DNA from: a plasmid | Length of the DNA stretch: 37,697 bases | Sequence record: NZ_CP016506.1 | Direction: 5' to 3' (one strand) | Shown here: positions 4,494-29,023 of the stretch, piece by piece | Layout: each line of letters begins with the position of its first letter | Position numbering within the stretch: position 1 is the first letter of the stretch | The notes under the pieces: model-generated | Told to the model about the DNA's origin: nothing | What the model saw: only the letters and a program-made list of their open reading frames with translations | Database searches by the model: none | Position numbers and translations under genes: made by a program

Positions 4494-4544
4494 TAATTAC
4501 ACCTCAATTCAGGTTATGTACTATTCTATTTTCTCTATGTGTAT

Positions 4545-4882: not shown

Positions 4883-5292
4883 AGTAACCTCTGAATATTT
4901 ATTCTTGACAGATAAATTTCAACATAGTCATTATTCAACCATCTTTTTAGTGGCTGATATTCAATAACACCTGTTGCACCATTTTTTCTTAGCCAGTCTT
5001 TCGCTGACCAGTAACTATCAAAAGAAGATGTCCTTACAACTATTTCTTCAGAATGGGCAACGGCATAAAAAACAGAATCATCGTAAAGACGGTTTTCTGG
5101 TTTAAAATCAGGCAACACCTTACTCCATGAGGAAGTTATATTATCTGATTTAATAACACCGGATGTTGGTGTCCAGTTCATTATTTGTGTATTCATAACT
5201 TCAGGCCTTTTTTCCCATTCAACCTGTGGCGGTTCAGGTGGAGAGGAACAGGCTGTGAGGACAAGAATACTGATCATAAGTATTTTTTTCAT
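4879..5292 (-). CDS. lipoprotein of unknown function (T4SS-associated)
   Basis: Lipobox LTAC|S after a signal peptide. Its stop overlaps the start of the downstream gene. Confidence 0.6.
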   Translation of the reverse strand: MKKILMISILVLTACSSPPEPPQVEWEKRPEVMNTQIMNWTPTSGVIKSDNITSSWSKVLPDFKPENRLYDDSVFYAVAHSEEIVVRTSSFDSYWSAKDWLRKNGATGVIEYQPLKRWLNNDYVEIYLSRINIQRLL

Positions 5293-8158: not shown

Positions 8159-8159
8159 A

Positions 8160-9365: not shown

Positions 9366-10291
9366 TGGATCACCTCTTTCTTAACATCCGGGGATACCGT
9401 ATCTCCGGCTGGTAAACGTACTTTTCCGAAGCCCAGGTTCTCAATCCCCACCACCTGCTCACCAAGACGTAAAACAAAACGCTTATCAACCGGTACGCCA
9501 ACAGCCGTAAAACTCCCGCTCTGTTTAATCACAGGATTGGTAAGAGTCTCCTGCATACCGTTCATCACAAAGACGCTGGGAATTTTCTTTAACGGACTGA
9601 AGCCGAACCAGGTATAACGACCATCGTCATATGCATAATCAGGGCTGATATCCTGGCTGCCTTCAGCAACCCGCTTCCAGTACTGCCAGTTACGGGGCGA
9701 TTTCGCATTTTCCAGGGAACGGTTGATTGCCTGTTCCTCCAGGCGTCTGGCAAGAGCCTCTGTGCGTTTCTTCTCAATTTCGGCCTGTTCCTTCCGGCGT
9801 TCCTGCGGATACTGGTAATTCACCACAAACGCAATTTTCTCCGGCTGTCGGAACGTTCTGGCGTTCAGCTCCATGCTGTAATTACGTTTCGTGGTGCGAA
9901 CAAACAGATTCGTTCGCCAGCGTTCAAGCTCATTTTCCGGGTCAAGAGCAACACTGACGGATTCAGAAGAGGTGTTACCGTTTGCATCCGTATTATTTTT
10001 CTGAACAGTTTGTTTAACAGGACGAACTTCCAGGTATACCAGGTTATCTTCTTTATTAACCGCCCATCCCTGCGGAAAACCGGTTCTGGCACTGATAACT
10101 GTTTCATCTTCATCAAATACCAGTGTGGTGGTGTATCCAACGGCACTGTTAATTATGGTGGTATTATTGGGGTTATAACTGACTATCTGATTGCGTGGGT
10201 CAAAGCGACTGCCTGAAGGAAGAACAGCAGCATTACAGACGTGCGCCGCCATCAGAAGCGCCATAATTAACGCTCCTTTATTCATTTTCAT
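9362..10291 (-). CDS. pilX9: VirB9-family T4SS protein
   Basis: Signal peptide with VirB9/CagX-like domains. Sits between the VirB8 and VirB10 genes. Confidence 0.85.
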   Translation of the reverse strand: MKMNKGALIMALLMAAHVCNAAVLPSGSRFDPRNQIVSYNPNNTTIINSAVGYTTTLVFDEDETVISARTGFPQGWAVNKEDNLVYLEVRPVKQTVQKNNTDANGNTSSESVSVALDPENELERWRTNLFVRTTKRNYSMELNARTFRQPEKIAFVVNYQYPQERRKEQAEIEKKRTEALARRLEEQAINRSLENAKSPRNWQYWKRVAEGSQDISPDYAYDDGRYTWFGFSPLKKIPSVFVMNGMQETLTNPVIKQSGSFTAVGVPVDKRFVLRLGEQVVGIENLGFGKVRLPAGDTVSPDVKKEVIQ

Positions 10292-10295
10292 ATTA

Positions 10296-11009
10296 TTAAC
10301 CTCTGGCTTCTTTATCGCGAACGTAGCTTGTTACAACGAACTTAAGAGGATTGTTATTACGTTCCCCTGACACCATTTCAACCTGCGGTTCGATACGATA
10401 AGTCAGGCGAACATTCCAGAACTCCTGGCGGGTTTGTCCGGTAGCAACATCCCTGATGGTCAGACGAAAACGAATATACGCACCGATATCTTTATCATCC
10501 GTCCGTGACGAAGGTGAAATTATGACAGATGGATTATCCTGAACCATTGCCGTTTTTTCTGCTTTGTTATAAACAAGTTTTGGTGCCTGTTCACTGTTAA
10601 ATAATGCGTTATAATCTGCCGCGACATTCTCCGCGCTGTAAGCCATTACATAATCATAATCATGCTGGAGACTGAAAAAATTATAACCTTCACGATGTTT
10701 TATATACTGGGTGATAAAATATCGGGCAATGGCTTCGTTTTCAGAAAGATTTTCTTTTTTAACAGAAGTCAGACGTTCAGCCACACCTGTAACCTTATCG
10801 ATAAGGTAGGCATCAACAACTGTTGTTTTCAGTGGTAATGCTGCATTTAATGCAAGTAAAGACAGCCCACCAATTAACATGCCTCCGATACCACCGAATT
10901 TATAAATACGATTCATTCTCTCCTGTAGTGCAATGTTTTTTTCTTCAAACGAAACTGATGAGTCAGTAACGTCTTTTTTATTTTTAAATCCGGGAAGTTT
11001 AAATTCCAT
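10296..11009 (-). CDS. pilX8: VirB8-family T4SS protein
   Basis: Bitopic, with a single TM segment and an NTF2-like periplasmic domain. Confidence 0.85.
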   Translation of the reverse strand: MEFKLPGFKNKKDVTDSSVSFEEKNIALQERMNRIYKFGGIGGMLIGGLSLLALNAALPLKTTVVDAYLIDKVTGVAERLTSVKKENLSENEAIARYFITQYIKHREGYNFFSLQHDYDYVMAYSAENVAADYNALFNSEQAPKLVYNKAEKTAMVQDNPSVIISPSSRTDDKDIGAYIRFRLTIRDVATGQTRQEFWNVRLTYRIEPQVEMVSGERNNNPLKFVVTSYVRDKEARG

Positions 11010-11127
11010 TTTGCATTACCTCAGCAGAATTAACAGGTTCGCTTTTCCCGGAAACGGGCGGTAGTTTATGTGACGCCTGACAACCAGCGAGACAAAGCGT
11101 CACGAAAGCCACAATAAGTAGTTTCAT
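10999..11127 (-). CDS. pilX7: VirB7-like lipoprotein (42 aa), not in ORF track
   Basis: Translates as MKLLIVAFVTLCLAGC... with lipobox LAGC|Q. Its stop overlaps the VirB8 start (ATGGAATTTAA). The position between virB6 and virB8 is canonical. Confidence 0.7.
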   Translation of the reverse strand: MKLLIVAFVTLCLAGCQASHKLPPVSGKSEPVNSAEVMQNGI

Positions 11128-11253
11128 AATATGAACACCTGTATAACAGATTAATATTTACAGAAGACTCAGTCTGAACAAAGAAAATAGATCGTGACAA
11201 GCCCGTTAATTATGAAAAGAACATTTAAAATGGTATCAACACTCATAATTAAA

Positions 11254-12315
11254 TCACCCTCCATACATTTTCTTTGCCCTCTCAATAGCTGCCTGACGAA
11301 GCTTTTTGGCACCAATATTAACGCCCTGTCCGGCCAGGTTAGCGGTCTTACCCGTTATTCCCGGAGACTGACCAAACCCGCCTTCCTGACGACGCAGACC
11401 TTTCCATGCACCAATACCGGCATTTCTGCCCATACCAAGTGCGCCACGCGCCATACGGGATGCACCGAAAACGCCAGCACCAATCCCCATAGCGGCTGCG
11501 CCCTGCATGGCACCTTCAACACCCACACCTGCAATCTGTGAAGCATAACTTTTCGCCTGCCAGATAATCCAGGCCATGAAAATGCCAGCAACAGCCGCAG
11601 TAGCGCCAATCTTAATTAGATTACGATTGTCTACCGTATCTATTGCCAGAGATAAAACTATATTGAGAAATGATGTTCCGGCTCTTAAAGCTAATGAACC
11701 GAACATAAATATCAAGCATGAACTGAAAATAAGCTGCAACCAGCTATTAAACATTTGTCTCAAAAAACCAAACATCAGGCAAAAGATAAAAACAGGTGCA
11801 GTGACAGTCAATAATTTCAGGGTTACTTCCGCAGCAAGAAAAACTATAGCACATGCAACTAATGCTAATATTCCACCAAAATAAGTAAAAAGAGCAGCTA
11901 TAGCGCCATCTGTTTTTACATAAGTTGAAGTATCCTTAGACATAACATGCGCAGCAACCTGTTGTACTTTCGTCCATAACTGATCTAACCATAACCAAGC
12001 ATCATTATTACCAGATAACGAATCCTTTAAACCATCTATTGCTACCAGGGAAGTATTTAGCCACCCACCTGCATTTTGTACAAATATTAAAATTATAGAA
12101 AACCTGCACAAGTTCCAGATAAAATCAGGCACAGGTGTTTGCTGTTTTCTAGCCAGAACAGTAAAAGCATACCATAACACATAGATGGACACCCCGTAGC
12201 GTCCTAGGGTGCCTGCTATATTACTTAAACTTGTTAACTGACCAGAAACCGAAGCATCGAGAACCGAGAGGATCTCTTCTTTTGCTGTGACAAAAAAATT
12301 ACTTGCTTCAGCCAT
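11254..12315 (-). CDS. pilX6: VirB6-family polytopic inner-membrane T4SS protein
   Basis: Multiple TM helices and a Gly-rich C-terminus. Confidence 0.85.
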   Translation of the reverse strand: MAEASNFFVTAKEEILSVLDASVSGQLTSLSNIAGTLGRYGVSIYVLWYAFTVLARKQQTPVPDFIWNLCRFSIILIFVQNAGGWLNTSLVAIDGLKDSLSGNNDAWLWLDQLWTKVQQVAAHVMSKDTSTYVKTDGAIAALFTYFGGILALVACAIVFLAAEVTLKLLTVTAPVFIFCLMFGFLRQMFNSWLQLIFSSCLIFMFGSLALRAGTSFLNIVLSLAIDTVDNRNLIKIGATAAVAGIFMAWIIWQAKSYASQIAGVGVEGAMQGAAAMGIGAGVFGASRMARGALGMGRNAGIGAWKGLRRQEGGFGQSPGITGKTANLAGQGVNIGAKKLRQAAIERAKKMYGG

Positions 12316-12326
12316 CTCTTGTTTCC

Positions 12327-12611
12327 TTATTTTTTAGGCACATCACCTTTTTCTTCATGATTAGAAGCATCTTTATATTTTTTAAAATACTCTTTAAAAT
12401 TTGGTTCTTTGGCATGAAGTTGTTGATAACGGAAATTAGCTTCTTTTACATTTCGACAATTCTGGCTGTCACTTCCGGTTTTCTTACACTCAGCTTCTTT
12501 TTTCAATGATTCTTCATGATGCTCCAACCACCAATCAACAGATTTGGTTTCCTCACATCCAACAAGGGAAAAAATACTGAGTGCACCAATCAAAACAAAA
12601 GACTTTTTCAT
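12327..12611 (-). CDS. eex: entry-exclusion lipoprotein
   Basis: Lipobox LVGC|E. Its position between virB5 and virB6 matches pKM101 and IncX eex. Confidence 0.65.
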   Translation of the reverse strand: MKKSFVLIGALSIFSLVGCEETKSVDWWLEHHEESLKKEAECKKTGSDSQNCRNVKEANFRYQQLHAKEPNFKEYFKKYKDASNHEEKGDVPKK

Positions 12612-12625
12612 AAGACAACCTCTCT

Positions 12626-13375
12626 TCAGTTTAAAGTGTATCTTCTCGCTGCATCCTTAAATGAAGGTTCTTCAGCCTCTAGTTGTTGTTTTCTGAAAGC
12701 AGCCTGAGCCATCTTCTCTTTATATTCTGCAAGATCTCGTTGCTTATCGCGATACATTTGATACTGAAATTTGAGCTTCTCGAACTTCAGTTGTTCAAGT
12801 GCAACAGCGTTTGTTGCATCCTGCGTGGCCTTCGTATCCTTCGCATTTTTGACTTGATCAATAAGGCCTTTCATCGTCTGGTTGTCCTGACGAAGCTTGC
12901 TCTCCAGCTTGTTACCGTATTCCACGCTTGCCAGTTGAGAAAGGAACGTCGCTTCACATCCCCGTACCAGGTCGCCGGAATATCCCAGGTTCTGGCAGGT
13001 ATCCGTTACTTTGTAATCTGACAATAACGATTTGGCCTGTTCCGATAACGCCCCTTCAGGATTTTTAATGTAATCGTCAATAAAAGCATTCCCCTGATCA
13101 TAAATCTGCATCAGTTCCTGACTCACTGACTGTGCGGACTGCACCAGTCCCTGCACATCACGGATACCCGTTTTTGACAGCAGCTCCTGTTTGTACGCAT
13201 TTATCTGATTTTCGTAATGTTTTACCGTTTCCGCCCATTGCTTAAGGCGTTCTGTCCATCGTCCGGCTTCAATCGCCCATTCAGGGTTGGCGTTGATGGC
13301 AACAGGTATCCCTGCCTGAGCGCCGGAAATAACAATCAGTGAAGCGACGAATGCCGCCATAATTTGCTTTTTCAT
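12626..13375 (-). CDS. pilX5: VirB5-family minor pilin/adhesin
   Basis: Signal peptide and a helical VirB5-like protein. Confidence 0.8.
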   Translation of the reverse strand: MKKQIMAAFVASLIVISGAQAGIPVAINANPEWAIEAGRWTERLKQWAETVKHYENQINAYKQELLSKTGIRDVQGLVQSAQSVSQELMQIYDQGNAFIDDYIKNPEGALSEQAKSLLSDYKVTDTCQNLGYSGDLVRGCEATFLSQLASVEYGNKLESKLRQDNQTMKGLIDQVKNAKDTKATQDATNAVALEQLKFEKLKFQYQMYRDKQRDLAEYKEKMAQAAFRKQQLEAEEPSFKDAARRYTLN

Positions 13376-13385
13376 TGGTGATTCC

Positions 13386-16139
13386 TCAAATCAGGTTCGC
13401 CTGTTCCAGATAGGTATCAAGCCACTCTTCCGGCTTCATTCCTTCTTTCCAGATTTCATCGAACAGTTCTAACTGGGGTTTTGATGCACTGAGAACCGGT
13501 AAGTAATACGCTGCTTTTCCCAGCTCCAGTCTGGCAAAAGCAGCAAAATCATCACTTTCACCTTTCCTCTGTGGGTTCTTAACAACAAGGAACTGGCGGG
13601 ACAGCGGATCGATAGCTTTAATTTTGTCAAAATAAAGCTCCCTGACCTGCAAACCATCAACATATTCACTACGTTTGGCTTTCGGGTTTGCCAGATAGAT
13701 ATGAGTGGCGCATTGCTCACGAACCGCTGCCGCAATGGGTGATTTAATCAGTTCATCCGGTGACTGTGTGGCTACTACAAGCACCATATCGAGTTTACGT
13801 CCGGTTTTCAGCTTGTTGTAAACAAAGTCCCTGAACGCTTCGTTATTGATCCATTGCCAGAACTCATCCATGTAGATAAGAAGCCTGCGACCATCGGCCA
13901 GCATAGTGACCCGATAGATGAGATAGAATGAAGCAGCACTGGCCAGCACCTTATTATCCAGGAATTCCGTTCCATCAATACCGAAAACATCCAGGTTATC
14001 GACATCAAACGTGTCTTCCCGATTGTCGAACACCCAGCCAAACTCTTCCCCCTGCGTCCACGGCTTAAGACGGGCTTTAAGTCCATGACGTTTGGTTTCA
14101 GTATCATCCGGCTCCTGGATAAGAGGCCGTAGTTTACTGATAGGATAAGAGCGATCTGACCGTTGCATAAGACGTTCAACCGCATCTGAAATCAGGCTGT
14201 TCTGGTAATCATCGAGCGGCTCACTGTTGAGAGTACAAAGCAGCCTCACCAGGTCCTTCATAAAAGCGATATTACGTTTTGTTGGCGGCAGTGCGGCGGG
14301 ATTCCAGCCTGTCGGCTCTCCCTCCTTCACCCGGTAATAAGATCCCCCCATTGCCCGTATACCGACTTCACCTGCCCGGTCTTTATCGAAAAAAACCGTG
14401 GTCAGTTTTTTCAGTTTTCTGTTTGCAGGGAATGATTCCGGCGTACCGAACTGCTGGGCGGCAAATGCTTTTGTCATCAGTAATACGGTTTTACCCACGT
14501 TAGACGTACCGAGAATTTCGGTATGCCCCAGCGTCGGGTTCTTACCGAAGAAATTCTGATGTTCAGTCGTCATATGGTAATTCAGATGGTAGATATCATT
14601 ACCTGACCCCCGAAGAGTAATCAGTTTTTCCCCCCAGGTATTTCCTTTTTCTTTTCCTGAAAAGAAATTATGAAAACTTTCCATTTCAGCAAAATTAAGA
14701 CTACTGAGGATACTCAGACGAGGGCGAAGCGTATAATTTCCTGGTAGCTGAGCAAAATAAGCTGCGCCAAGACTCAGTGTTGAATAAGTGACAATCAGCC
14801 CCAAATCTTCCAGAGTGGAAGTCACGATATTGGTGTCTTTCACCAGACGCTCCGGTGAATCCGCAAAGACAACCAGGGTCTGATGCGATTTCCCGAAAGA
14901 AATATATCCACTGGAAACCATATCCAGTCCGACTTTCAGATCTGCCAGCAAAGATTTGGCAGCATCATCTGTCATTTCCAGCTTATCGATCTGATCATCC
15001 AGCGCCTTAATCGCTGACTGCTTATCCATCGCAGTAAAGGACGATGTCACGACATACTCAACGGGGAGATACATCAGAGCATCCAGAATACCGGCATCCG
15101 TCTCCTGAAAATAATCCTTAATCTCTATGCAACGAAAATACCGGGCATGGTCTGACGCGGTAATTTGTCCGGCATCATTACCAAAGAACAGGTCTTTTCC
15201 TCCCAGATATGTATAAAACGGACTACTGCTAACCCTGACCTTTTGCCATCGACCAGAAAGCAGATACTGGAACAGAGATAACTGATCTGAATAAACAACC
15301 CCATGATCTTCATAAAGTCCAAGACGTCGGGAATGAAAACGGGACAGATAGGTATTCAACCTGTCGCAAATTTCATTCATTTCATTAACAGGCTCTTTAA
15401 AGATATCTTTTTGTTTTTTACTGCGTGAAAAGAAATGTGTTACTTTATCTTCCGTAGTAAAAGGTTTAAAACAAATCGTCAGAAATAATTTATTCTCGAA
15501 AAATTCAGACTGAGGGAATGACTCGTAATAATCATTCATTACTCTGTTCACAAAAGGAATTTTACTGTTAAATACTGGTCTGACGTCCTTTTTACACCTG
15601 ATACGATGAGGATAAAGCGTAACAGATTTCCCTTCAAAGCTACGTATAAGCGTATTAAGCTGATCTGTCAGAATTGACAAATCTTCAGAATCAACACACT
15701 CAAAGTAAGCACCGTCTATCTGCCAGGTTGCCAGCAAATCCCGGTTTTTTGTAACGATAATATTATCAGTGATATGTGAAGAGTACGGAATTAACTCTTC
15801 AACAGAAGACTGGTCTTTCAGCTTCATAAAGTTATCCACTTTTGAAATATCAACTTCGTCGTACTGGCTCCCCGCATAATGGACTGCGCTGAATCGCTTG
15901 TTTGATAAAGGATGCCCTTTGACAAGAGTTCTCAGATACAGAAGGTCAAAAAAGCGTTCATCAAACTGTGTTACACGCCTGATGGCATACCAGCCAGGAA
16001 GAATAAGGGCATACATAGCCTCATGAATCCAGACACCAAGCAGAACACAAATAATGCACATTCCAAGAAAGGGGTAGAGCGGAACGCCCAGCCCCCTTAT
16101 TAAAGCAGGGCGCGTAAGACCTTTAAAAAGAGTACTCAT
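13386..16139 (-). CDS. pilX3-4: VirB3-VirB4 fusion ATPase
   Basis: An N-terminal VirB3-like TM segment of about 95 aa fused to a VirB4 ATPase (Walker A GTSNVGKT). Confidence 0.9.
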   Translation of the reverse strand: MSTLFKGLTRPALIRGLGVPLYPFLGMCIICVLLGVWIHEAMYALILPGWYAIRRVTQFDERFFDLLYLRTLVKGHPLSNKRFSAVHYAGSQYDEVDISKVDNFMKLKDQSSVEELIPYSSHITDNIIVTKNRDLLATWQIDGAYFECVDSEDLSILTDQLNTLIRSFEGKSVTLYPHRIRCKKDVRPVFNSKIPFVNRVMNDYYESFPQSEFFENKLFLTICFKPFTTEDKVTHFFSRSKKQKDIFKEPVNEMNEICDRLNTYLSRFHSRRLGLYEDHGVVYSDQLSLFQYLLSGRWQKVRVSSSPFYTYLGGKDLFFGNDAGQITASDHARYFRCIEIKDYFQETDAGILDALMYLPVEYVVTSSFTAMDKQSAIKALDDQIDKLEMTDDAAKSLLADLKVGLDMVSSGYISFGKSHQTLVVFADSPERLVKDTNIVTSTLEDLGLIVTYSTLSLGAAYFAQLPGNYTLRPRLSILSSLNFAEMESFHNFFSGKEKGNTWGEKLITLRGSGNDIYHLNYHMTTEHQNFFGKNPTLGHTEILGTSNVGKTVLLMTKAFAAQQFGTPESFPANRKLKKLTTVFFDKDRAGEVGIRAMGGSYYRVKEGEPTGWNPAALPPTKRNIAFMKDLVRLLCTLNSEPLDDYQNSLISDAVERLMQRSDRSYPISKLRPLIQEPDDTETKRHGLKARLKPWTQGEEFGWVFDNREDTFDVDNLDVFGIDGTEFLDNKVLASAASFYLIYRVTMLADGRRLLIYMDEFWQWINNEAFRDFVYNKLKTGRKLDMVLVVATQSPDELIKSPIAAAVREQCATHIYLANPKAKRSEYVDGLQVRELYFDKIKAIDPLSRQFLVVKNPQRKGESDDFAAFARLELGKAAYYLPVLSASKPQLELFDEIWKEGMKPEEWLDTYLEQANLI

Positions 16140-16157
16140 AATGCGCCCATCCTTTAA

Positions 16158-16487
16158 TTACGCAAGCCAGTCAGGAATATATGGTGCAACAATAAAGATG
16201 ATAATTCCGATAACAAGTGGGACTATCCATGAGGTATGTTGACGAGAAAATATCGCAATATACCCAATAACAAGAGCAATAATTGTAATTGCAGGCTTAC
16301 GAATATCCGTTAAAAAATCAATTATTTTCTGTAAAAAACCAGTTGTCTTCGTAGACACATCATCCGCAAAAGCAGGTTCTGCAACACAAAGCATCAACGC
16401 AGCCATAAATAGAGAAAGCGTTAAATAACGTTTATTCAGATTTAATTTCAACATCTTTTGTTTCCTTTTCATTTGATACAGTGCCAC
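16158..16487 (-). CDS. pilX2: VirB2-family pilin precursor
   Basis: A long signal peptide followed by two hydrophobic helices. The true start is probably the internal Met at 16454. Confidence 0.8.
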   Translation of the reverse strand: MALYQMKRKQKMLKLNLNKRYLTLSLFMAALMLCVAEPAFADDVSTKTTGFLQKIIDFLTDIRKPAITIIALVIGYIAIFSRQHTSWIVPLVIGIIIFIVAPYIPDWLA

Positions 16488-17115
16488 GCATGGCGTATTG
16501 AGGATATATAATGATTTCTTCAGGTGTGATAGTCGTCTTACTCTCCTTTTTAATCATTTCCTTTACAGAGGGAACAATAAAACTTTTTTTATTATCAGGA
16601 GGGCTAAATCCTATACGTTGTACATAACTTGTATTATTAAATTCAGGTTCTGGCTTTACTCCTGTTTCTGGATTGCCGGAATAATAGCAACTCAGCCCAC
16701 GCACTAAGTCGCCACCTCGTTTATAACAGTCAACCAGTATTTTTTCTGATACCTTAAGATTTTCGCATGGATCAAACATTTTCTCTGCTGTTGTACCAAA
16801 CTTTGCAAAATTGGTACTCGTTATTTGCATAAGTCCTACAGAGTAACGATGATTCCGTAATTCAATGTTTTTAACGATCTTAAGTGCTGCCTCCTTTGAT
16901 TCAGGAAAGTAAGATACTACGCCTTTATCACCAGGTTTGCGTTTAACCTTTGGTATTATTTCCGCAATCGCATATGGGTTAAAACCTGATTCAACCCTGG
17001 CGACTTCGTGCGTTGTATCGGGATGAACGCTGGCAGCGCATTGCATGGCAAGCGCAAGAAAAGTAGAAGTAGATAACATAAATATTCCACATTCAGAACA
17101 CCGGGGCGCTATCAC
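16432..17115 (-). CDS. pilX1: VirB1-family lytic transglycosylase
   Basis: SLT domain with GLMQI and the catalytic E. The GTG start overlaps the upstream stop as GTGA. Confidence 0.85.
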   Translation of the reverse strand: MIAPRCSECGIFMLSTSTFLALAMQCAASVHPDTTHEVARVESGFNPYAIAEIIPKVKRKPGDKGVVSYFPESKEAALKIVKNIELRNHRYSVGLMQITSTNFAKFGTTAEKMFDPCENLKVSEKILVDCYKRGGDLVRGLSCYYSGNPETGVKPEPEFNNTSYVQRIGFSPPDNKKSFIVPSVKEMIKKESKTTITPEEIIIYPQYAMRGTVSNEKETKDVEIKSE

Positions 17116-18124: not shown

Positions 18125-19291
18125 TTATAAGCCCAAAAACTTAATCCCTGTTTTCAGCTTCTGTTCTGACTGTAACGTGGATGCTTTCTGCTGCGTAAAC
18201 TGCGCCATTCGCTGTTGTTGCTTCAACAGCATATCAGGGCTGTTCAGTACCAGCTCTTTGCTGGCTGAAGGTGTTCTGTCTACGCCCTTAACCCCCAGAT
18301 TTTCTAACTGCCACTCATTTCTGTGAACCGTTTTCCAGCCATGCTGAACACCGTTTTTATCGAGCGCCGGGATTTTTACTTCTTTCTGACCAAGTTTCTT
18401 CAGTCTGACAAGATCACCTGCTTTAACGCTTTCCCGCGAACATAAGCCCCCAAAATCAGCCCCCCAGTATGTTTTCTCAACCCCCTTGTTAAGAGTCTTT
18501 AGCTTTATAAAATGTTGCTTAGACTTTGTTTTATCGTTCTGATAATGGTCATAGCCAATATCAACAACCTCATAAACACCTTTCTGTCTTTTTGGTGCTG
18601 TATTATGTGCATCTTTAACAGACTGATTAAGTCCATGCTGTTGCTTATGGGTCGCTTTAACGTCATAACCTTTTAACTTCAACTCTTCACAAAAACCTGT
18701 ACGAATTTCCCGTAAATCTTTTTTCCTGATATCAGCGCGTTTACCGTCATTATCTCGGATACGAAAAACAACATGAACGTGAGGATGTTCTTTCTTGTCA
18801 CAGTGGTATCCAAGAACAAAACGGTGATTAGGATATTTTTTCTGCATCGTTTTCCTGACAGACTCCAGCAAATCTTCAGGCTTTACTTTCGCTGAAACTG
18901 GAGGCGAGAAGACAATATTCTGTGTGATTTTTTTATTTTCTTTACCTTTATCATTCATCACATGCTGAGGATCATTAGCACGATCTATCATGTGCTCTTT
19001 AGCTTCCAGAATTTCGTCACCCGTCCATACCCGACCGCTTTCACTCATCACTGGTAGCTCTGACTCACGGCTCATATAATCAATACTGTTCCGAATCCCC
19101 TGACGAGTAACAGCACCTCCAGATATTTTGACAACAACCTCCTTACTGGCACCCTTGCGGTTGATACGTTCCTGAACATTGCGGCTATAGTTCTTTCCAC
19201 CATTTTTGACTTTGTGAGCGAAAGCTGACTTACGACCATTTTCTGATGACTTTCGTTTAACACGATGTTCTTTATCAACGTAAACGCCCAT
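18125..19291 (-). CDS. taxC: MOBP-family relaxase
   Basis: A VirD2-like N-terminus with the HPHVHVV histidine triad and a Tyr-containing N-terminal region. An ATG at 19291 follows a GGAG RBS. Confidence 0.85.
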   Translation of the reverse strand: MGVYVDKEHRVKRKSSENGRKSAFAHKVKNGGKNYSRNVQERINRKGASKEVVVKISGGAVTRQGIRNSIDYMSRESELPVMSESGRVWTGDEILEAKEHMIDRANDPQHVMNDKGKENKKITQNIVFSPPVSAKVKPEDLLESVRKTMQKKYPNHRFVLGYHCDKKEHPHVHVVFRIRDNDGKRADIRKKDLREIRTGFCEELKLKGYDVKATHKQQHGLNQSVKDAHNTAPKRQKGVYEVVDIGYDHYQNDKTKSKQHFIKLKTLNKGVEKTYWGADFGGLCSRESVKAGDLVRLKKLGQKEVKIPALDKNGVQHGWKTVHRNEWQLENLGVKGVDRTPSASKELVLNSPDMLLKQQQRMAQFTQQKASTLQSEQKLKTGIKFLGL

Positions 19292-19293
19292 AA

Positions 19294-19839
19294 TCACATC
19301 TCCACTTTATTTGAAACAGTTCTCCCTTTACATAACATAATGTAATTCTCAAACTGATTCTTAAGATTAAAAATTTCTGTTGTAAGACGCTCCGCATCCT
19401 GATAGAAACCATCTTTATCAAGAACCCTGGTCTGATCATTAACAATGATATAATGGAAATTACGACCGATCTTATCAATTGAATTACGGCAACGATTCAT
19501 CATCAGCAGTTCCTGGTCAAAGAAATCCAGTTCATTTTCAAGTGTCGTCTGTATGCGGTAACGACATTCTCGTGATAACGTCCATCCGTGACGATTAGCA
19601 GCTCTTTCAATATCAGCCCTTTGTTTACCTGTTAAGTACATCGTTGTTTTGATAAAATCATTATTATCAAAAAACGTATTTATATCCTTACTGACAGCTT
19701 TACTTTTTAATAAAGCATTTGCTAAAAGTTTCATGCCTTTAGCTACTGTTAAAGCTGGTTCATCCGGATAAAGAGTTTTAAGGCAATCCAGCAAATCATC
19801 ATGCTGATTTTCATCAATTCTGAATTGAACTTTTTTCAT
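19294..19839 (-). CDS. taxA: relaxosome accessory protein
   Basis: Immediately upstream of the relaxase. The start at MKKVQF has a GGAG RBS. The 23 residues before it in the ORF track are translated from oriT repeat sequence. Confidence 0.7.
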   Translation of the reverse strand: MKKVQFRIDENQHDDLLDCLKTLYPDEPALTVAKGMKLLANALLKSKAVSKDINTFFDNNDFIKTTMYLTGKQRADIERAANRHGWTLSRECRYRIQTTLENELDFFDQELLMMNRCRNSIDKIGRNFHYIIVNDQTRVLDKDGFYQDAERLTTEIFNLKNQFENYIMLCKGRTVSNKVEM

Positions 19840-19940
19840 AAAATTCTCCAACAAGAACCGACTGTAGGTCACCGGGCAAATGTTGCGGAATGGCGTCAGA
19901 GACGTCATTTTGCGGCGTTTGCCCTATCCTGCATCGCAGT
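19840..19940. repeat. oriT: oriT-like element, left copy of a roughly 100-bp inverted repeat; contains MOBP nic motif TATCCTG|CATC and GC-rich hairpin
   Basis: Its reverse complement at 25390-25491 is about 97% identical. It carries the YATCCTG|Y nic consensus of RP4-type oriTs. It lies directly upstream of taxA. Confidence 0.6.
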
Positions 19941-20164
19941 GAATCTGGCGCCGCTCATAAATTGTGCTTGAGCATCAACAAAAATGCAAAAAGGCTGATG
20001 TTGTCATGGCTGAACATACGTACGTCTGCGACCGGAAACCCGATCAATGCGGTAAGGACAGTGCCGTCAGGTTCGCTCCGCGAACGGTCTGGCAGGAAGC
20101 GCAAGCGCAGTCCCGCGCAATATATCAGAAAGCACCTCCCGAAATACGGGAGGGCTTCGGCTAT

Positions 20165-20437
20165 TCAGCTAAGGTTGCTCTGTTCAGGTTGCTGAGTGTA
20201 GCCTTCCATGCCCTGACGGGCATCAAAAAGCCAGCGCCGGAAGTTACTCATTCTTTCAAGGTTAGCTTTGCTTGGTTTTTTGCCACGATTACCACTTAAT
20301 ATCCGCCAGACTCGTATTCCTGCTTTATTAGTCCAGTGCAGAACAATTTCTCCTTTGCTGTTAAAAGCAAGAGAAAAGCGTACAGCGCCTTGCCGCAATT
20401 CTCCACTGACAAAGGACACAAAATCATGTTTTGTCAT
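20165..20437 (-). CDS. hypothetical protein (90 aa), leading-region
   Basis: A strong GGAGG RBS. Preferred over the antisense ORF 19964..20299. Confidence 0.55.
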   Translation of the reverse strand: MTKHDFVSFVSGELRQGAVRFSLAFNSKGEIVLHWTNKAGIRVWRILSGNRGKKPSKANLERMSNFRRWLFDARQGMEGYTQQPEQSNLS

Positions 20438-20449
20438 AAAGCCTCCGGT

Positions 20450-20599
20450 TTATTTATCTGTTCTCTTTTGTGTCTTTTTTTCCAGTGCTTTTCTGAGTAA
20501 TGCCATATACTCAGGAAAGACATGGAATGGCATCAAAGGGAAAACCGGACGCCCACCCTTTTCAACGTCATTTATTGCTGATAATATGCGTTCCGACAT
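20450..20599 (-). CDS. hypothetical small protein (49 aa from internal Met)
   Basis: GAGG RBS before the second Met. Only 13 nt separate it from the downstream gene. Confidence 0.4.
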   Translation of the reverse strand: MSERILSAINDVEKGGRPVFPLMPFHVFPEYMALLRKALEKKTQKRTDK

Positions 20600-20668
20600 T
20601 TTATTCCTCGCAATAGAATCAGGTGTCACGGTATCAGGTTGCCCCACAACCTGATACCATCTTTATCT

Positions 20669-20848
20669 TTACTTTATTAACTTCTCAATTGCTTCTTTTT
20701 TTGCTTTCTCCTGTTCTGATGGTGGGTATGCAAGGTCATACCAGTTATCAATACAATGAATAACTCTTTCTTTAGATAATCCACATTGCTCAAACCAAAA
20801 TTTTATATTTCGGTTTAATGATGCTTTTGCGCTAAACTCTCTTTCCAT
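20669..20848 (-). CDS. hypothetical small protein (59 aa), not in ORF track
   Basis: ATG at 20848 with an AAAGG RBS. Follows the GGGGG/CCCCC terminator hairpin at 20862-20886. Confidence 0.35.
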   Translation of the reverse strand: MEREFSAKASLNRNIKFWFEQCGLSKERVIHCIDNWYDLAYPPSEQEKAKKEAIEKLIK

Positions 20849-20890
20849 TTTCAGACCTTTACTAAAAGGGGGAATATCCCCCCTGATTAA

Positions 20891-21220
20891 TTAGTAGTAA
20901 GAAGAAAATCGATGTTTTTCTTCCGGTAGAGTTTTATACGCAGTTTCAAAATCTTCGATTTTGATTGCCAGCTCATCACCAAAATCTTTTATCTGACGCT
21001 TAAAACATTCACCAGTAAAATCATTTAAAACGGGAGTTTTAAAGCCGACCATTGAATCGGTATATTCTGAATTGGCGCGAATCTCGCGAACGGTGACGGT
21101 TTTTTTACCGTGAACAGAAAGAACCTGGTAGAAGGTTACATTGGTTTGCTCATAGCCCCATGATGATACAAAGATATCACCAACAGAGATAGTATCATTT
21201 TTAAAAGTTAATACTTTCAT
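20891..21220 (-). CDS. hypothetical protein (109 aa) driven by 85-bp promoter cassette
   Basis: GGGAG RBS. The conserved promoter repeat sits immediately upstream. Confidence 0.6.
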   Translation of the reverse strand: MKVLTFKNDTISVGDIFVSSWGYEQTNVTFYQVLSVHGKKTVTVREIRANSEYTDSMVGFKTPVLNDFTGECFKRQIKDFGDELAIKIEDFETAYKTLPEEKHRFSSYY

Positions 21221-21231
21221 TTTTAGCTCCC

Positions 21232-21316
21232 GCCCAGCTTGGGCTCTGGATGAAAGAGAACCTGTTTCCCTTTCCTGTGTTTTATTATACCTGCATTTGC
21301 AGGTATGGCAAGCTAT
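21232..21316 (-). promoter_or_regulatory. 85-bp promoter/operator cassette copy 1: -35 TTGCCA, 16-nt spacer containing palindrome CCTGCAAATGCAGG, -10 TATAAT, conserved 60-nt leader
   Basis: Near-identical to 22141-22225. The -10 hexamer is perfect. A palindrome overlaps the spacer. Confidence 0.65.
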
Positions 21317-21534
21317 TTTTTTACCAGCCTGTAAGACGGATGCATATTTGCTAATAACAATAAATACTGATATTCACCAATAGATAAAGAACGACTGGCC
21401 TTACCTGCACTTTCTTTCATCTGCCAGGAATTCAGTTGATAACCAAAAATATCAGCAGCTTCTTTAAGAGTAAGACCTGCCGCAACCCGCGCATTCTTTA
21501 CTTCTTCAGGTGTAGGTTTATTCTGCATTTTCAT
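21313..21534 (-). CDS. XRE/Cro-like helix-turn-helix protein (73 aa)
   Basis: The AAGLTLKEAADIFGYQLNSWQMKESAGK stretch fits an HTH_XRE pattern. Confidence 0.65.
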   Translation of the reverse strand: MKMQNKPTPEEVKNARVAAGLTLKEAADIFGYQLNSWQMKESAGKASRSLSIGEYQYLLLLANMHPSYRLVKK

Positions 21535-21763
21535 TCCCTTTTGTCAGACAATCACACAAAACCCCATTATCCAGAAGCATCAATGATGCCAGGTTGAGTT
21601 TTTCGTCCATTATCAATTTTCTTACTGTTTTCCTGCTTTTAGTTTTATCAATCGTCTTAACATATTTTAAGACGTGAAAAACCGTATCCCCATCTTCATC
21701 CATCGTTCTGATTACATAGGAGTAATTACCTCTGTTTTTCTTAATTATCTTATCTTTATCCAT
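21518..21763 (-). CDS. hypothetical protein (81 aa from Met5), overlaps HTH gene by 17 nt
   Basis: GAGG RBS before the MDKDK start. Coupled to the downstream HTH gene. Confidence 0.5.
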   Translation of the reverse strand: MDKDKIIKKNRGNYSYVIRTMDEDGDTVFHVLKYVKTIDKTKSRKTVRKLIMDEKLNLASLMLLDNGVLCDCLTKGNENAE

Positions 21764-21780
21764 ATTATTCCTCATAACTA

Positions 21781-21807
21781 AAAAAGGGGCTTAATGCCCC
21801 TTTTTAT
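21781..21807. terminator. bidirectional Rho-independent terminator (aaaaaggggcttaatgcccctttttat)
   Basis: A GC stem flanked by A and T runs on both sides. Confidence 0.7.
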
Positions 21808-22131
21808 CTATAACACGGTATGTAACCCTGTTTCCTGTGTAAATAAACGCGCTAACTGATCACAATAGATATTATCGAATCTTGAAATATCTTTAACTTC
21901 AGCACCACGTACACGAGAAAATTTCACCTGGTACGTATCAGTAAAATCCAGTTTAATTTTTACTAAGTTGATGCCTTTCATTGCAAAATTTGACGGCAAA
22001 CGGAAAGTTAACCCACACTCACCGTTTTCATCAAAGTAAGAAAAACTTTTAGCACCAGTCATAACAATAAAACGATTACCACCAAGTTGACGTAAAATCT
22101 CTGTGGCTACAGATTTAGCGTAGTTTTGCAT
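21808..22131 (-). CDS. hypothetical protein (107 aa) driven by 85-bp promoter cassette
   Basis: ATG at 22131 with a GGGAGG RBS. The ORF track extends it with a GTG into the repeat. Confidence 0.6.
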   Translation of the reverse strand: MQNYAKSVATEILRQLGGNRFIVMTGAKSFSYFDENGECGLTFRLPSNFAMKGINLVKIKLDFTDTYQVKFSRVRGAEVKDISRFDNIYCDQLARLFTQETGLHTVL

Positions 22132-22140
22132 TTTTAACCT

Positions 22141-22225
22141 CCCGCCCACTTTGGGCTCTGGATGAAAGAGAACCTGTTTCCCTTTCTTGTGTTTTATTAT
22201 ACCTGCATTTGCAGGTATTGCAAAT
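22141..22225 (-). promoter_or_regulatory. 85-bp promoter/operator cassette copy 2 (-35 TTGCAA, palindrome CCTGCAAATGCAGG, -10 TATAAT)
   Basis: Direct repeat of 21232-21316. Confidence 0.65.
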
Positions 22226-22276
22226 TTTTAATGCTCTCGCTCTGACTGTAAACAGTCAATCATTTGATGATTAATC

Positions 22277-22558
22277 TTAGCGCAAATCTGCGATCTGATA
22301 GACTTCGCTGCTTTCCCTTCTTCCAACGGCAATAACGAGTAAAACGACTTTCTCATCAATGACTTGGTATACAAGTCTGTAGCCAGATGCACGAAGTTTG
22401 ATTTTATAGCGATCAGCATGACCATGTAACCGGGCTGCGGGTACGCGTGGATTTTCCAGCCGTTCTGCCAGTTTCTTTTTGAATTGTTCACGGATGGTGT
22501 GGCCGAGTTTCTGCCATTCCTTCAGTGCTCTACGGTCAAAAGCCAGTTCATAGGTCAT
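22277..22558 (-). CDS. stbE: RelE/ParE-family toxin
   Basis: A 93-aa basic protein with a RelE-like C-terminus (RLVYQVIDEKVVLLVIAVGRRE). Overlaps the upstream antitoxin gene. Confidence 0.85.
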   Translation of the reverse strand: MTYELAFDRRALKEWQKLGHTIREQFKKKLAERLENPRVPAARLHGHADRYKIKLRASGYRLVYQVIDEKVVLLVIAVGRRESSEVYQIADLR

Positions 22559-22799
22559 CCAGGTTAACCTTCACAATTTCCGGGTTTTTCATGCGCTCAT
22601 CAGCAACAGCGTTTAACTCAGCATCTTCAGCGAGTTCCCGATAGTAGGCGTAAAGTTTTGGTGGAACGCAATAGAACGCCGGTTCGTTTCGGTTCAGGAT
22701 CGCAACAGCGTCCCCTTCACCTTCAGCTACGGTTCCCATAGGATTTTTTTTCAGGTCAGTAATACTGGCCGCTGTGGTTGTCAGAATTTGATAGCTCAT
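22548..22799 (-). CDS. stbD: Phd/YefM/RelB-family antitoxin
   Basis: An 83-aa acidic protein with a typical Phd/YefM N-terminus. It precedes the toxin and overlaps it by 11 nt. Confidence 0.85.
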   Translation of the reverse strand: MSYQILTTTAASITDLKKNPMGTVAEGEGDAVAILNRNEPAFYCVPPKLYAYYRELAEDAELNAVADERMKNPEIVKVNLDDL

Positions 22800-23271
22800 A
22801 AGCCCTCCGCTTGTCTCATTGGCATAATAGCATCTTTAAAAGCACTCTTAAAAGTGCTTATGTTGAGAAAAACATCAGAACAGGTGAGATATGGCTCTTT
22901 CCGACATCGCCTTAAAACGCTCTGTAACGCGTTCTGAGCGTTTTTCCCGTTTCGTTGTAGTTCAGCTACGGTTTAACGGTTTTTAACGCCGCTCAACGCT
23001 TTTTAGCGGCCTTGTTGCTGTGATCTGTTGCCATGATCCGGATAGGAGTTCAATCTTGATCAAAATTTCCTCAAGGCAACGACTGTTTTGTAAATACCCT
23101 CTAAAACGCGCTGTATCGCATTCTGAGCGATTTTTTCGATTTCGCATGGTTTCACCATGGTTGTATCGAACGAAGCGGCAGAAAGCGATTCAGGGCTTCT
23201 CAGTGAAAGATCCAAAAAGGATCAATCAACGGATCGTATGAGCTGAACTCTTCTGGTTTTGAGAAAGGAGA

Positions 23272-23335
23272 CACCGCTCGCCGCAGCCGAACGACCGAGC
23301 GTAGCGAGTTAGTGAGCGAGGAAGCGGAATAGCAC
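23272..23335. other. segment nearly identical to the pMB1/ColE1 region just downstream of ori (ccgctcgccgcagccgaacgaccgagcg.agcgagt.agtgagcgaggaagcggaa); candidate PriA-type primosome assembly / ssi site
   Basis: Recognised from memory of pBR322 and pUC sequence. About 55 of 58 nt match. Confidence 0.45.
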
Positions 23336-23441
23336 AGGGATTACATTAGGCACTTACGCACAGTGGTTAAAAAATGAGCATATTGTTTTTATGTGTGGTT
23401 GTCTTGGTTCAGAGTGATCTGTCCTCCGGGTTTACGCAAAG

Positions 23442-23489
23442 TTATCCACAGGCGCTGTGAATTTTTTGTTTTGAGCAGAGTTATCCACA
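23442..23489 (+). promoter_or_regulatory. two consensus DnaA boxes TTATCCACA (23442-23450, 23481-23489)
   Basis: Exact matches to the TTATNCACA consensus, 30 bp apart, upstream of an AT-rich GATC-rich stretch. Confidence 0.8.
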
Positions 23490-23499
23490 GATTTTTTGT

Positions 23500-23600
23500 G
23501 TTTTTTTGCTTATTAAACTTCTTGTTTTTAAGATCTTAAATGTAGATCGGTAGATCTACTTTAAGATCTTTAACTTACTTTAACTTATTCTGCAAACATT
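23500..23600. other. oriV: AT-rich DNA-unwinding-like region with 5 GATC sites (origin of replication, gamma-type)
   Basis: AT-rich, with tightly clustered agatct and gatc motifs between the DnaA boxes and the iterons. Confidence 0.7.
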
Positions 23601-23660
23601 GTGCCAGCTTTTTTATCAATAATTTCATTAAGATAGGTGTTGTTTTTTGTCGCCTCAAAA

Positions 23661-23781
23661 TGAAAGGTGGATGGGTACGCACTGAAAGGTGGATAGGTAC
23701 GCACTGTAATTTTCATGAAAGGTGGATGGCTGCGCACTGAAAGGTGGATGGGTACGCACTGAAAGGTGGATGGGTACGCAT
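23661..23781 (+). repeat. five 22-bp iterons TGAAAGGTGGATGGGTACGCAC (four contiguous pairs, one 11-bp spacer) - Rep/pi binding sites of oriV
   Basis: Directly visible tandem repeats. Two further single copies at 23865-23886 and 23950-23968 lie in the pir promoter region. Confidence 0.9.
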
Positions 23782-23864
23782 TTTTCTGTTTTTATTCAGA
23801 TATTCGTATCTTTGTATCTTCATTTCTTTAGTTCTTTATAGTGCTCTAATTTAACGTATGACGT

Positions 23865-23968
23865 TAAAAGGTGGATACCTGCGCATTTCTATCATATTGA
23901 ATATAAATGATAAAAATTCTTTCATGTGATCCGTGTTTTGGTGGAAATACATAAGGTGGATAAACCAC
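23865..23968 (+). promoter_or_regulatory. two isolated degenerate iterons (AAAGGTGGATACCTGCGCAT; ATAAGGTGGATAAACCAC) in the pir promoter - autoregulation operator
   Basis: Sequence matches the iteron core AAGGTGGAT. Confidence 0.6.
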
Positions 23969-24032
23969 TTTACATATTTCCGCCTTTGTGGTTATGATTT
24001 CACCATCAGAACTTAAAAACCACAGGTAATGT

Positions 24033-24869
24033 ATGAACTTACTGAGCGTTACAAAGAAAACAAAAATTCGCCACAGAAATGAAATTAACAGCACATTCTC
24101 ATCGTTGCCTTTGTCTGCCAGAAGAATTTTGTTTATGGCTATGGCGCAGATTGATTCACGTGAAGAGTTATCTGAGGGGGCAACCTTTCGTATTACGGCT
24201 CGGGAATATGCATTTATCGCTGATATTGATGTAACAGGTGCTTACCGGCAGTTGAAAGAGGGGGCAGAAGAACTTCAGGCCAGTGTTATTCGCATTCCTC
24301 GAAATCAACTTCTCACACCTCAGGGCAATCAAAGCTCTGGACATACGAAGAAGAGAGGTAAATTACCTTCTGATGCAGTCAGGCTTATGAACCTGACTGC
24401 GTTTTGTGATTATGTTGAAAGTGAAGGATATATTGATATTGCTTTTTCACATGTCATTGAGCCATATATCACGATGTTAAAGGATTCTTACACTACTCAG
24501 GTTTTGATATCGTCTGTAAGACTCGCTGATCAAAATTCAAATATGCTTTATCAGTTTATCAGGAAACAATACAGCAGTGGTAAAAAGACATTTTTCGACA
24601 TTGAAGTAGATGTATTAAAGGATGAACTTGAATTATTCAGAATAGATAATGGCGAAAAAGTTTACCTTTATCAGAATTTTAAGGATTTTAATAAGGTTTT
24701 TCTGCAAAAAAATATTGAAAAAATAAATCAATATACAGAGATTAATCATCTCGAAGTTAAAATCGTTGAGAGAGTCGCAAGAAGAGCATCAAAGCTAAGG
24801 TTTTCTTATAAAATAGATAAAGAAAGTGAGGGCTTAGATATCAGAATACCATACGGTTTCAGAGGATAA
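24033..24869 (+). CDS. pir: Rep_3-family replication initiator (pi protein)
   Basis: N-terminal KKTKIRHRNE and LAYRQLKEG-like motifs shared with R6K pi. Iterons lie upstream. Confidence 0.9.
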   Translation: MNLLSVTKKTKIRHRNEINSTFSSLPLSARRILFMAMAQIDSREELSEGATFRITAREYAFIADIDVTGAYRQLKEGAEELQASVIRIPRNQLLTPQGNQSSGHTKKRGKLPSDAVRLMNLTAFCDYVESEGYIDIAFSHVIEPYITMLKDSYTTQVLISSVRLADQNSNMLYQFIRKQYSSGKKTFFDIEVDVLKDELELFRIDNGEKVYLYQNFKDFNKVFLQKNIEKINQYTEINHLEVKIVERVARRASKLRFSYKIDKESEGLDIRIPYGFRG

Positions 24870-24908
24870 TTGCATAAACTTCGTTTTGAGATCGAAATGA
24901 GGTAGCTC

Positions 24909-25355
24909 ATGGCTAAAATCTATCAATTCCCTCAGGGGGAAGAACGTGCTAAATTCAGGAAAGAAATTGCCAGGGAGCGTAAGAAACGTTTTGCAGTGAA
25001 AACAGGGAGCACTTTTGTTAAGTGGCTTGGCTGGGGATGGTTTTATCTTCGTCTTCTTGTCGCGAGTGTTTTACATTTTATCTTTGTTTTTGTGTTAGCC
25101 ATTCTTGGTGCGTTTAAATGGGCTGTATTCTGGCTGGGTGGTATTTTGTGTGTCATCACTTGGTATCATCTCGATCACCAGTTATGGACGCCACAAAATC
25201 TGACTATACCGGTGATTACGGCAACCTGGATTTTGGGACTGCTGGCTGAGCCTCTGATGGAGCTGCTCAACAAAACTATGCCTTGGCACAAGTTACTTGT
25301 TCCCGAACCTGCGGACGAAAGCACCGAGAACAGTAGCGAGATAAGCCAGCAATGA
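24909..25355 (+). CDS. bis: Bis-like membrane protein following pir
   Basis: 148 aa with two TM helices. Position and size match R6K bis. Confidence 0.6.
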   Translation: MAKIYQFPQGEERAKFRKEIARERKKRFAVKTGSTFVKWLGWGWFYLRLLVASVLHFIFVFVLAILGAFKWAVFWLGGILCVITWYHLDHQLWTPQNLTIPVITATWILGLLAEPLMELLNKTMPWHKLLVPEPADESTENSSEISQQ

Positions 25356-25389
25356 TGCTACTCAGCAGTTATGCCAGTCCCTGCCTTTT

Positions 25390-25491
25390 CACTGCGATGC
25401 AGGATAGGGCAAACGCCGCAAAATGACGTCTCTGACGCCATTCTGCAACGTTTGCCCGGTGACCTACAGTCGGTTCTTGTCGGAGAATTTT
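25390..25491. repeat. oriT: oriT-like element, right copy (inverted) of the roughly 100-bp repeat; nic motif on minus strand
   Basis: Reverse complement of 19840-19940 with 2-3 mismatches. Extends to the RBS of the flanking gene. Confidence 0.6.
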
Positions 25492-25848
25492 ATGGAATAT
25501 CAGGTGAGAGAGTTTATTAACGAAAAATATACTAAGGCTGTTAATATTTTAAAGGATAACCTTAAAGAAAACTACCATGTTTTTTATGGTGTGAGATTAA
25601 GTGAGATTCTTTTTCCAGCCAGTGAGTATGGCACTGATGCTTTCTTTAAAGAGTTTGAATTAATTAACAGTGTAATACTTCCACTGGTAATCTTTGATTT
25701 AACACAACGCAAGCCAATGATGATTATCAGCTTCGATAAGATACTTGATGCCAGTTTGTTGGAAGGAACAAATATTGTGGTTCTTGAATGTATTACCCTC
25801 GCTGATCTTCTGACAAATGATAACATTGATTTTTTATATAAAAGCTAA
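25492..25848 (+). CDS. hypothetical protein (118 aa)
   Basis: GGAG RBS shared with the oriT repeat. The ORF track start at 25423 lies inside the repeat. Confidence 0.55.
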   Translation: MEYQVREFINEKYTKAVNILKDNLKENYHVFYGVRLSEILFPASEYGTDAFFKEFELINSVILPLVIFDLTQRKPMMIISFDKILDASLLEGTNIVVLECITLADLLTNDNIDFLYKS

Positions 25849-28913: not shown

Positions 28914-29023
28914 AGGAGTAGGGGGCTAATATACCTGCAAGGCAGGATATTAACTCAGGAGATTGGGGGTGTGGTGTTTAGTCAATGCATTTGAATATTG
29001 TAACTAAAATATGTTTTTATTAA

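Follow-up and report, generated by a model that had tools for sequence, protein, structure and literature searches.

The plasmid sequence NZ_CP016506.1 carries two inverted copies of a short sequence on either side of its replication and stability genes, and the question raised by this locus is whether both copies are origins of transfer (oriT) or whether one or both of them serve regulation, replication or recombination. The whole stretch of DNA analysed, 37,697 nucleotides (nt) in length, is referred to here as the window and is a complete IncX1 conjugative plasmid with full sets of relaxosome and type IV secretion system (T4SS) genes. A 7.5-kb region of it is 99.7-99.8% identical over its full length to IncX1 plasmids such as NZ_CP146677.1, a near-identical record of 37.6 kb typed IncX1, conjugative, MOBP and MPF_T; in the same comparison pOLA52 (NC_010378) gave 90% coverage at 99.3% identity. 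The long inverted repeat (LIR) pair very probably carries oriT-alpha and oriT-beta of this plasmid, each arm being a complete MOBP-type transfer origin.

A dual oriT has been textbook knowledge for R6K since 1996. The paired repeats of the window are the already described oriTalpha/oriTbeta pair, a known feature of IncX1 backbones and not a discovery, and the confirmation given here adds no new biology. The additions are modest and comprise a strand-biased hairpin with G.T pairs, the lack of any inverted isomer among about 1,400 plasmids, a relative with a single oriT and mosaic boundaries at the nick block. They could help to explain the mosaicism of the IncX subgroups and guide oriT-based mobility prediction. 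IncX plasmids are major carriers of blaNDM, mcr-1, tet(X4) and qnrS, and the paired origins would set which DNA enters the recipient first and which small plasmids can hitch-hike.

Anatomy of the two arms

A repeat search covering positions 19000-26500 of the window identified a sole long inverted pair, 19834-19943 and 25388-25497, with arms of 110 nt that are 96% complementary and separated by a spacer of 5,444 nt. When the arms were compared in register, 106 of the 110 positions were identical, and similarity dropped off sharply at both the outer and the inner ends. The inverted repeat of about 100 bp that a sequence-only reading had earlier placed at 19840-25491 is therefore real, its length and limits having been given a few bases short at the outer ends. 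The arms and the genes adjoining them are as follows:

19834..19943, + strand (the transferred, nicked strand): left arm, equivalent of oriT-alpha; 110 nt, 106/110 identical with the right arm; its R6K homologue is the arm adjoining ddp1
19874..19924, + strand: oriT-alpha hairpin, 24 bp with a 3-nt loop, fully paired on the + strand only
19925..19932, + strand: oriT-alpha nick motif TATCCTG|C, with the putative nick between 19931 and 19932, placed by analogy
25388..25497, - strand (the transferred strand): right arm, equivalent of oriT-beta; inverted-repeat partner of the left arm
25407..25457, - strand: oriT-beta hairpin, 24 bp, fully paired on the - strand only
25399..25406, - strand: oriT-beta nick motif TATCCTG|C, with the putative nick between 25400 and 25399
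19294..19839, - strand: taxA/ddp1, relaxosome accessory protein of 181 aa (NCBIfam DDP1 equivalog, 2.1e-70; annotation in the near-identical record), with its Shine-Dalgarno sequence (SD) and ATG within the left arm
18125..19297, - strand: taxC/ddp2, MobP1-family relaxase (NCBIfam MobP1, 2.5e-129; Pfam Relaxase PF03432); extent of the open reading frame (ORF), start codon not fixed
25492..25848, + strand: ddp3/taxD, 118 aa (NCBIfam DDP3 equivalog NF041452, 1.2e-51; annotation in the near-identical record), with its SD and ATG within the right arm

The names ddp1, ddp2 and ddp3 correspond to taxA, taxC and taxD, respectively (PMC3332091). Pfam searches of TaxA, Ddp3 and Bis gave no match; NCBIfam then identified TaxA and Ddp3, and the DDP1, MobP1 and DDP3 matches all exceed the curated cut-offs of that database. 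The 118-aa ORF to which the sequence-only reading had given no name is thus the known gene ddp3/taxD.

Read 5' to 3' on the strand that carries the 8-mer TATCCTGC, each arm consists of the complement of ATG and GGAG, a conserved block, the 24-bp hairpin with its 3-nt loop and TATCCTGCATCGCAGTGAA, which begins directly after the hairpin. Both arms contain GGAG-N7-ATG, the ATG of taxA being the complement of 19837-19839 and that of ddp3 lying at 25492-25494. The description of the copies as ending exactly at a GGAG-ATG was essentially right in this respect; the repeat itself runs 3 nt past the ATG of each gene. The conserved block 5' of the hairpin (CAACAAGAACCGACTGTAGGTCACC, about 35 nt) is identical among the aligned IncX1, X2, X3 and X5 representatives and is possibly an accessory-protein site.

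The MOBP nick consensus is (C/T)ATCCTG(C/T) with a preceding inverted repeat (PMC3772185). The 8-mer TATCCTGC, found at 19925-19932 (+ strand) and 25406-25399 (- strand), fits this consensus; taken alone it is weak evidence, because the window contains six copies of it, of which only the two in the arms have a hairpin. In both arms the motif is directly preceded, on its own strand, by an imperfect 24-bp hairpin (19874-19924 and 25407-25457) that reaches exactly to the T of TATCCTG. The gene of a cognate MOBP relaxase (NCBIfam MobP1, Pfam PF03432) lies close to the left arm. Motif and hairpin were thus found in both copies, as had been claimed for TATCCTG|C and a GC hairpin. A pattern search for a palindromic operator across the nick region matched the two arms themselves only.

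The hairpins are strand-biased. On the transferred strand (T strand) the left hairpin has 18 Watson-Crick and 6 G.T pairs, in place of which the complement has A.C mismatches; for the right hairpin the corresponding numbers, on the - strand, are 20 and 4. The energy of the left hairpin was -17.2 kcal/mol on the T strand versus -10.4 kcal/mol on the complement, and that of the right hairpin -21.4 versus -16.4 kcal/mol. For each of the nine hairpin types, drawn from IncX1-X5 and from a Morganella relative, the hairpin was stabler on the T strand, with a margin that is slight in some of them, e.g. 0.4 kcal/mol in Morganella. The IncX4 and Morganella stems are unrelated in sequence to the IncX1 stem, yet each forms a 17-bp stem ending exactly at TATCCTGCAT. 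Because these stems differ in sequence but still end exactly at that point, the kept structure supports, on comparative grounds, selection for a single-strand structure.

An additional in-frame ATG is present in the hairpin loop, 23 codons upstream of both taxA (19840-19908, - strand) and ddp3 (25423-25491, + strand), from which 204-aa and 141-aa versions of the two ORFs (MTSLTPF...) could be read; the ddp3 coordinates of one published annotation (3-425) are close to the longer length. This ATG is probably a mere consequence of the shared repeat, 23 stop-free codons being not unusual.

Kinship and distribution of the arms

R6K (NZ_LT827129.1, IncX2) has, like the window, a single long inverted repeat, which in R6K is about 111 nt in length, is split by a 1-nt indel and has 5.2-5.3 kb between its arms. 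In both plasmids the arms bracket small ORFs, the gamma origin, pir and bis in the same gene order, and one arm adjoins ddp1(taxA)-ddp2(taxC) and the other ddp3. Over 110 nt the arms of the window show 85-86% identity with those of R6K. The two plasmids share, without a single difference, a 40-nt nick block, GACGTCATTTTGCGGCGTTTGCCCTATCCTGCATCGCAGT, made up of the nick motif and the hairpin's 3' half; they differ in the loop and in the hairpin's 5' half, and the R6K stems have two mismatches at places where the window plasmid has G.T pairs. An IncX dual oriT is recognised by inverted copies around the gamma origin, pir and bis, by homology to the R6K arms and by taxA-taxC and ddp3 as neighbours, all of which were found in the window. 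That the copies are of oriT type and orthologous to the two oriTs of R6K, as had been suggested, is borne out by these identities; the parallel with R6K holds for the arms and not for the plasmid itself, which has an IncX1 replicon, not the IncX2 replicon of R6K, and a Pir only 42% identical to that of R6K. Both oriTs of R6K have been reported as functional (Avila et al. 1996, by its title as cited in PMC5587640).

Two oriTs within long inverted repeats are regarded in the literature as a hallmark of conjugative IncX plasmids, and the arrangement has been published for IncX1 plasmids (PMC3402527, PMC3332091), including the mapping of oriT-alpha and oriT-beta inside the alpha and beta LIRs of one of them (PMC3332091). 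The IncX1 plasmids pOLA52, pLN126_33, R485 and pECTm80 have the same feature, with an oriT close to taxC and another close to repX/ddp3, and the published IncX1 LIRs show no substantive difference from those of the window, which is a further member of the same backbone.

The window also shares the RP4-type layout, in which the relaxase operon lies on the hairpin side and is transcribed away from oriT. The RP4/IncP oriT (MOBP11) and T-DNA borders (MOBP2) share the core ATCCTG in (C/T)ATCCTG(C/T) and have an inverted repeat close by on its 5' side (PMC3772185). RP4 has a single oriT, whereas the window plasmid has two; the hairpin of the latter, at 24 bp the longer one, directly abuts the motif, and the relaxase is a member of another MOBP subfamily (NCBIfam MobP1). 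A passage of PMC5587640 names ICEclc and pAD1 alongside R6K as having more than one functional transfer origin, but their sequences and relaxases are unrelated to those of the window.

Arm matches were found at 3,938 places in 2,429 plasmid records, a number that fits about two copies for each of some 1,520 conjugative records and a single copy in all others; a repeat of such length and similarity, recurring in so many records, cannot be chance. Two arms are kept in each of the IncX1, X2, X3, X4 and X5 representatives compared, and in IncX4 the stem is unrelated but the hairpin-TATCCTGCAT layout is the same. Between IncX1 and IncX3 the arm is 98% identical, against 84.5-85% for TaxA and 39% for Pir, and on the beta side the arm forms an island of conservation with an abrupt fall just beyond the nick. 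These comparisons indicate that both copies are under selection. The arms of one plasmid usually have a common, lineage-specific hairpin, with 98/99 positions identical in L002 (CP088488.1), 93/93 in L005 (IncX5) and 70/70 in L009 (IncX4, NZ_OZ040269.1), which is consistent with arm-to-arm conversion or with joint selection by one relaxosome.

Several relatives depart from this layout. In the IncX4 plasmid L009 the repeat is 70 nt long and 100% identical, carries a small palindrome of its own (GCCTGCGGCAGGC), and stops over 30 nt short of each start codon; in the ddp3 position next to its oriT-beta (4485-5012) lies a gene for a 175-aa protein with a DUF2726 domain, 21-28% identical to Ddp3 proteins. 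A complete IncX-type oriT, with hairpin and TATCCTGCATCGCAGTG, is present at 468-556 of the 1,749-bp ColpVC plasmid L013 (NZ_CP075736.1). Such very small plasmids, which encode a Rep protein only and are typed as non-mobilisable, probably hitch-hike on IncX relaxosomes. The Morganella morganii plasmid pMM2467-2 (L008/L012, NZ_CP149993.1) has an IncX-like backbone in which ddp1, the relaxase gene and ddp3 form one operon, and there is one hairpin-TATCCTGCAT site in the entire plasmid, which MOB-suite calls 'non-mobilizable' despite its relaxase and T4SS. This single-oriT operon layout may be the ancestral state and hints at how the oriT pair arose.

The position of the gene starts raises another reading, in which the taxA-proximal copy is the sole working oriT and the ddp3-proximal copy is retained mainly for the joint regulation of ddp3 and taxA, as a duplicated regulatory or 5' untranslated region (5'UTR) cassette or as a site bound by a relaxosome protein. 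In IncX1 the arms have 5'UTR, SD and ATG in common, the repeat of IncX1, X2, X3 and X5 takes in both SDs and both ATGs, and the one-operon layout of Morganella suggests that a second copy arose when ddp3 left the operon. Yet the beta arm keeps, beyond the 5'UTR, the nick motif and the hairpin in every lineage examined; the IncX4 repeat leaves out both SDs and still has identical hairpin and nick sequences; non-conjugative IncX derivatives and the 1.7-kb ColpVC plasmid retain a complete oriT of IncX type; and the report on R6K cited above has both oriTs functional. We consider a purely regulatory beta copy improbable. The relaxosome-controlled promoters that the sequence-only reading had proposed for taxA and the 118-aa ORF are hypothetical. 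A scan of both arms for consensus sigma-70 promoters found none, and by eye only weak candidates were seen, such as TTGCCC-17-TCTTGT; the IncX4 repeat, moreover, does not reach either gene start, and pir-bis precedes ddp3 on the same strand, so that ddp3 could also be transcribed by read-through.

Proposed transfer from the inverted origins

The interior of the repeat pair and the transfer machinery of the window contain the following features:

20165..22149, - strand: seven small ORFs, all read towards oriT-alpha
22277..22799, - strand: stbDE-type toxin-antitoxin pair (ParE/RelE toxin, Phd/YefM-like antitoxin; family matches and annotation in the near-identical record)
23663..23888, + strand: six gamma-origin iterons, of which five (22-bp repeats) lie at 23663-23783 and one at 23867-23888
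24033..24869, + strand: pir/repX, Rep3-type initiator (Pfam Rep3_N and Rep3_C), read towards oriT-beta
24909..25355, + strand: bis (annotation in the near-identical record), read towards oriT-beta
5289..17115, - strand: transfer machinery, coupling protein (5289-7130) and VirB-type T4SS genes (VirB11, B10, B9, B8, B6, B3/4, B1), from Pfam

The proposal that the copies bracket stbDE, oriV-gamma, pir and bis agrees with this arrangement, as the ParE/Phd pair, the iterons, the Rep3 initiator and bis all lie between the arms. The seven small ORFs, which the sequence-only reading did not mention, lie there too; Pfam and NCBIfam searches of these seven gave zero matches.

By analogy with related systems, TaxC (Ddp2), aided by TaxA (Ddp1) and probably by Ddp3/TaxD, would nick after the G in TATCCTG|CATCGCAG and stay on the 5' end, and the coupling protein and the VirB-type T4SS would lead the TaxC-bound strand into the recipient. 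If, as in RP4-type systems, the DNA 3' of the nick enters first, the hairpin would be the last part to enter and would serve recognition and rejoining at termination. Since the arms are inverted, the strands nicked would be opposite (+ at alpha, - at beta), so that transfer could start in either direction, as had been anticipated, and both origins would lead with the interior: each would send the 5.4-kb replicon and stability segment first and its own flanking gene (taxA-taxC or ddp3) last. Entry from oriT-alpha would start with the seven small ORFs, whose template strand is the T strand, and entry from oriT-beta with pir/repX and bis; the template strand of each interior gene is the T strand of its nearest oriT. 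A strand leaving one origin would encounter the second origin in complementary form only, so that neither premature termination nor deletion would be expected.

Some observations weigh against two active transfer origins as the full account of the LIRs. The activity of both copies in the window plasmid is assigned by homology. A hybrid plasmid, L006 (NZ_CP110124.1), carries two differing hairpin types, which indicates that identical arms are not required, and one of its arms could be idle. The alpha and beta replication origins have also been described as including these same LIRs (PMC3332091). Transfer need not be their sole role, and replication and transfer roles are not mutually exclusive.

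In its strong form this last point makes the repeats chiefly replication elements, namely alpha and beta origins at which Ddp proteins distort the DNA, with the likeness to oriT being secondary. The iterons lie about 3.7 kb and about 1.6 kb from the arms, distances that resemble those of the R6K alpha and beta origins. However, Ddp1, Ddp2 and Ddp3 are the relaxosome proteins TaxA, TaxC and TaxD, so the 'distortion' is most simply relaxosome action, and the MOBP nick motif and the strand-biased hairpin are features of transfer. No iteron with three or fewer mismatches was found near either arm or elsewhere outside the gamma cluster, in a search that half-iterons, as the R6K alpha and beta sites may be, would escape. 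A chiefly replicative role is therefore judged very improbable, and transfer from both arms remains the preferred reading.

Two inverted 110-bp repeats that are 96% identical are also a possible substrate for homologous inversion, and the sequence-only reading had allowed for inversion of the segment, in which case the repeats would be the recombination sites of an invertible 5.4-kb segment with two isomers. Both junctions of the inverted isomer were built and one of them (taxA-arm-bis) was searched, with a coverage threshold of at least 80% and a native control query of identical design. None of the 2,077 matching records covered the inverted junction, whereas the native junction was covered to at least 80% in 1,396. 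The gene order is unchanged among the IncX1, X2, X3, X4 and X5 representatives examined, and the segment encodes no invertase. The orientation of the segment is fixed in assembled plasmids, contrary to that suggestion, and an invertible segment is hardly credible, although a rare inverted minority could still occur.

Terminal inverted repeats of a composite transposon were considered and rejected, as there is no transposase, the interior contains replication genes, stability genes and small ORFs only, and the outer ends of the repeat fall inside the starts of two genes.

Mosaic boundaries and further features of the window

The nick block coincides with boundaries between plasmid lineages. In the hybrid L006 (11780-12080) identity to the R6K type is 100% over taxC and taxA and stays so through the first (5') half of the oriT-alpha hairpin, while identity to the IncX1 type is 100% beginning 6 nt after the motif's start. 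Since the sequence is R6K-type up to the nick and IncX1-type from +6, the crossover lies inside the identical 40-nt block. At least 127 records match the query for this junction at 99% identity or more. In L002 (around 16805) a foreign patch of about 180 nt, comprising the 5' end of taxA and the arm, is flanked by sequence 96-100% IncX1-like, and its right edge is the nick block. The patch has the short IncX5-type hairpin, identical to that of the beta arm of L002 itself, which suggests arm-to-arm conversion. Compared with the window, L002 has a Pir only 39% identical and a Bis 96% identical, and the segment is highly mosaic in general.

The crossover at the nick block could have taken place by relaxase-catalysed strand joining at nic or by short-homology recombination, and the L006 and L002 boundaries fit both alike. 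That the oriT arms, and especially the 40-nt nick block, are preferred crossover points for the exchange of replicon and transfer modules among IncX plasmids is a tentative and rather unlikely proposal; if true, the pair of inverted oriTs would turn the replicon segment into an exchangeable cassette.

Among the small ORFs of the segment a direct repeat of 92 nt, 93% identical, occurs at 21220-21311 and 22132-22223 (read on the - strand), upstream of the ORFs 20891-21220 and 21808-22149. Each copy has a promoter-like TTGCCA-16 nt-TATAAT overlapping ATACCTGCAAATGCAGGTAT, which is a perfect palindrome, and after it GGGAG and ATG. Six copies of the half-site TACCTGCA are present in the window, where 0.72 would be expected, and one of them sits in a similar palindrome (28931-28950) just downstream of the resolvase gene. 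Palindromes of the ATACCTGCAAATGCAGGTAT type may be a shared operator for some repressor. In the accessory part of the plasmid, 32009-33910 (+ strand) encodes a 633-aa ATPase of the AAA_15/AAA_21 type, which is possibly a defence or abortive-infection-type cargo gene.

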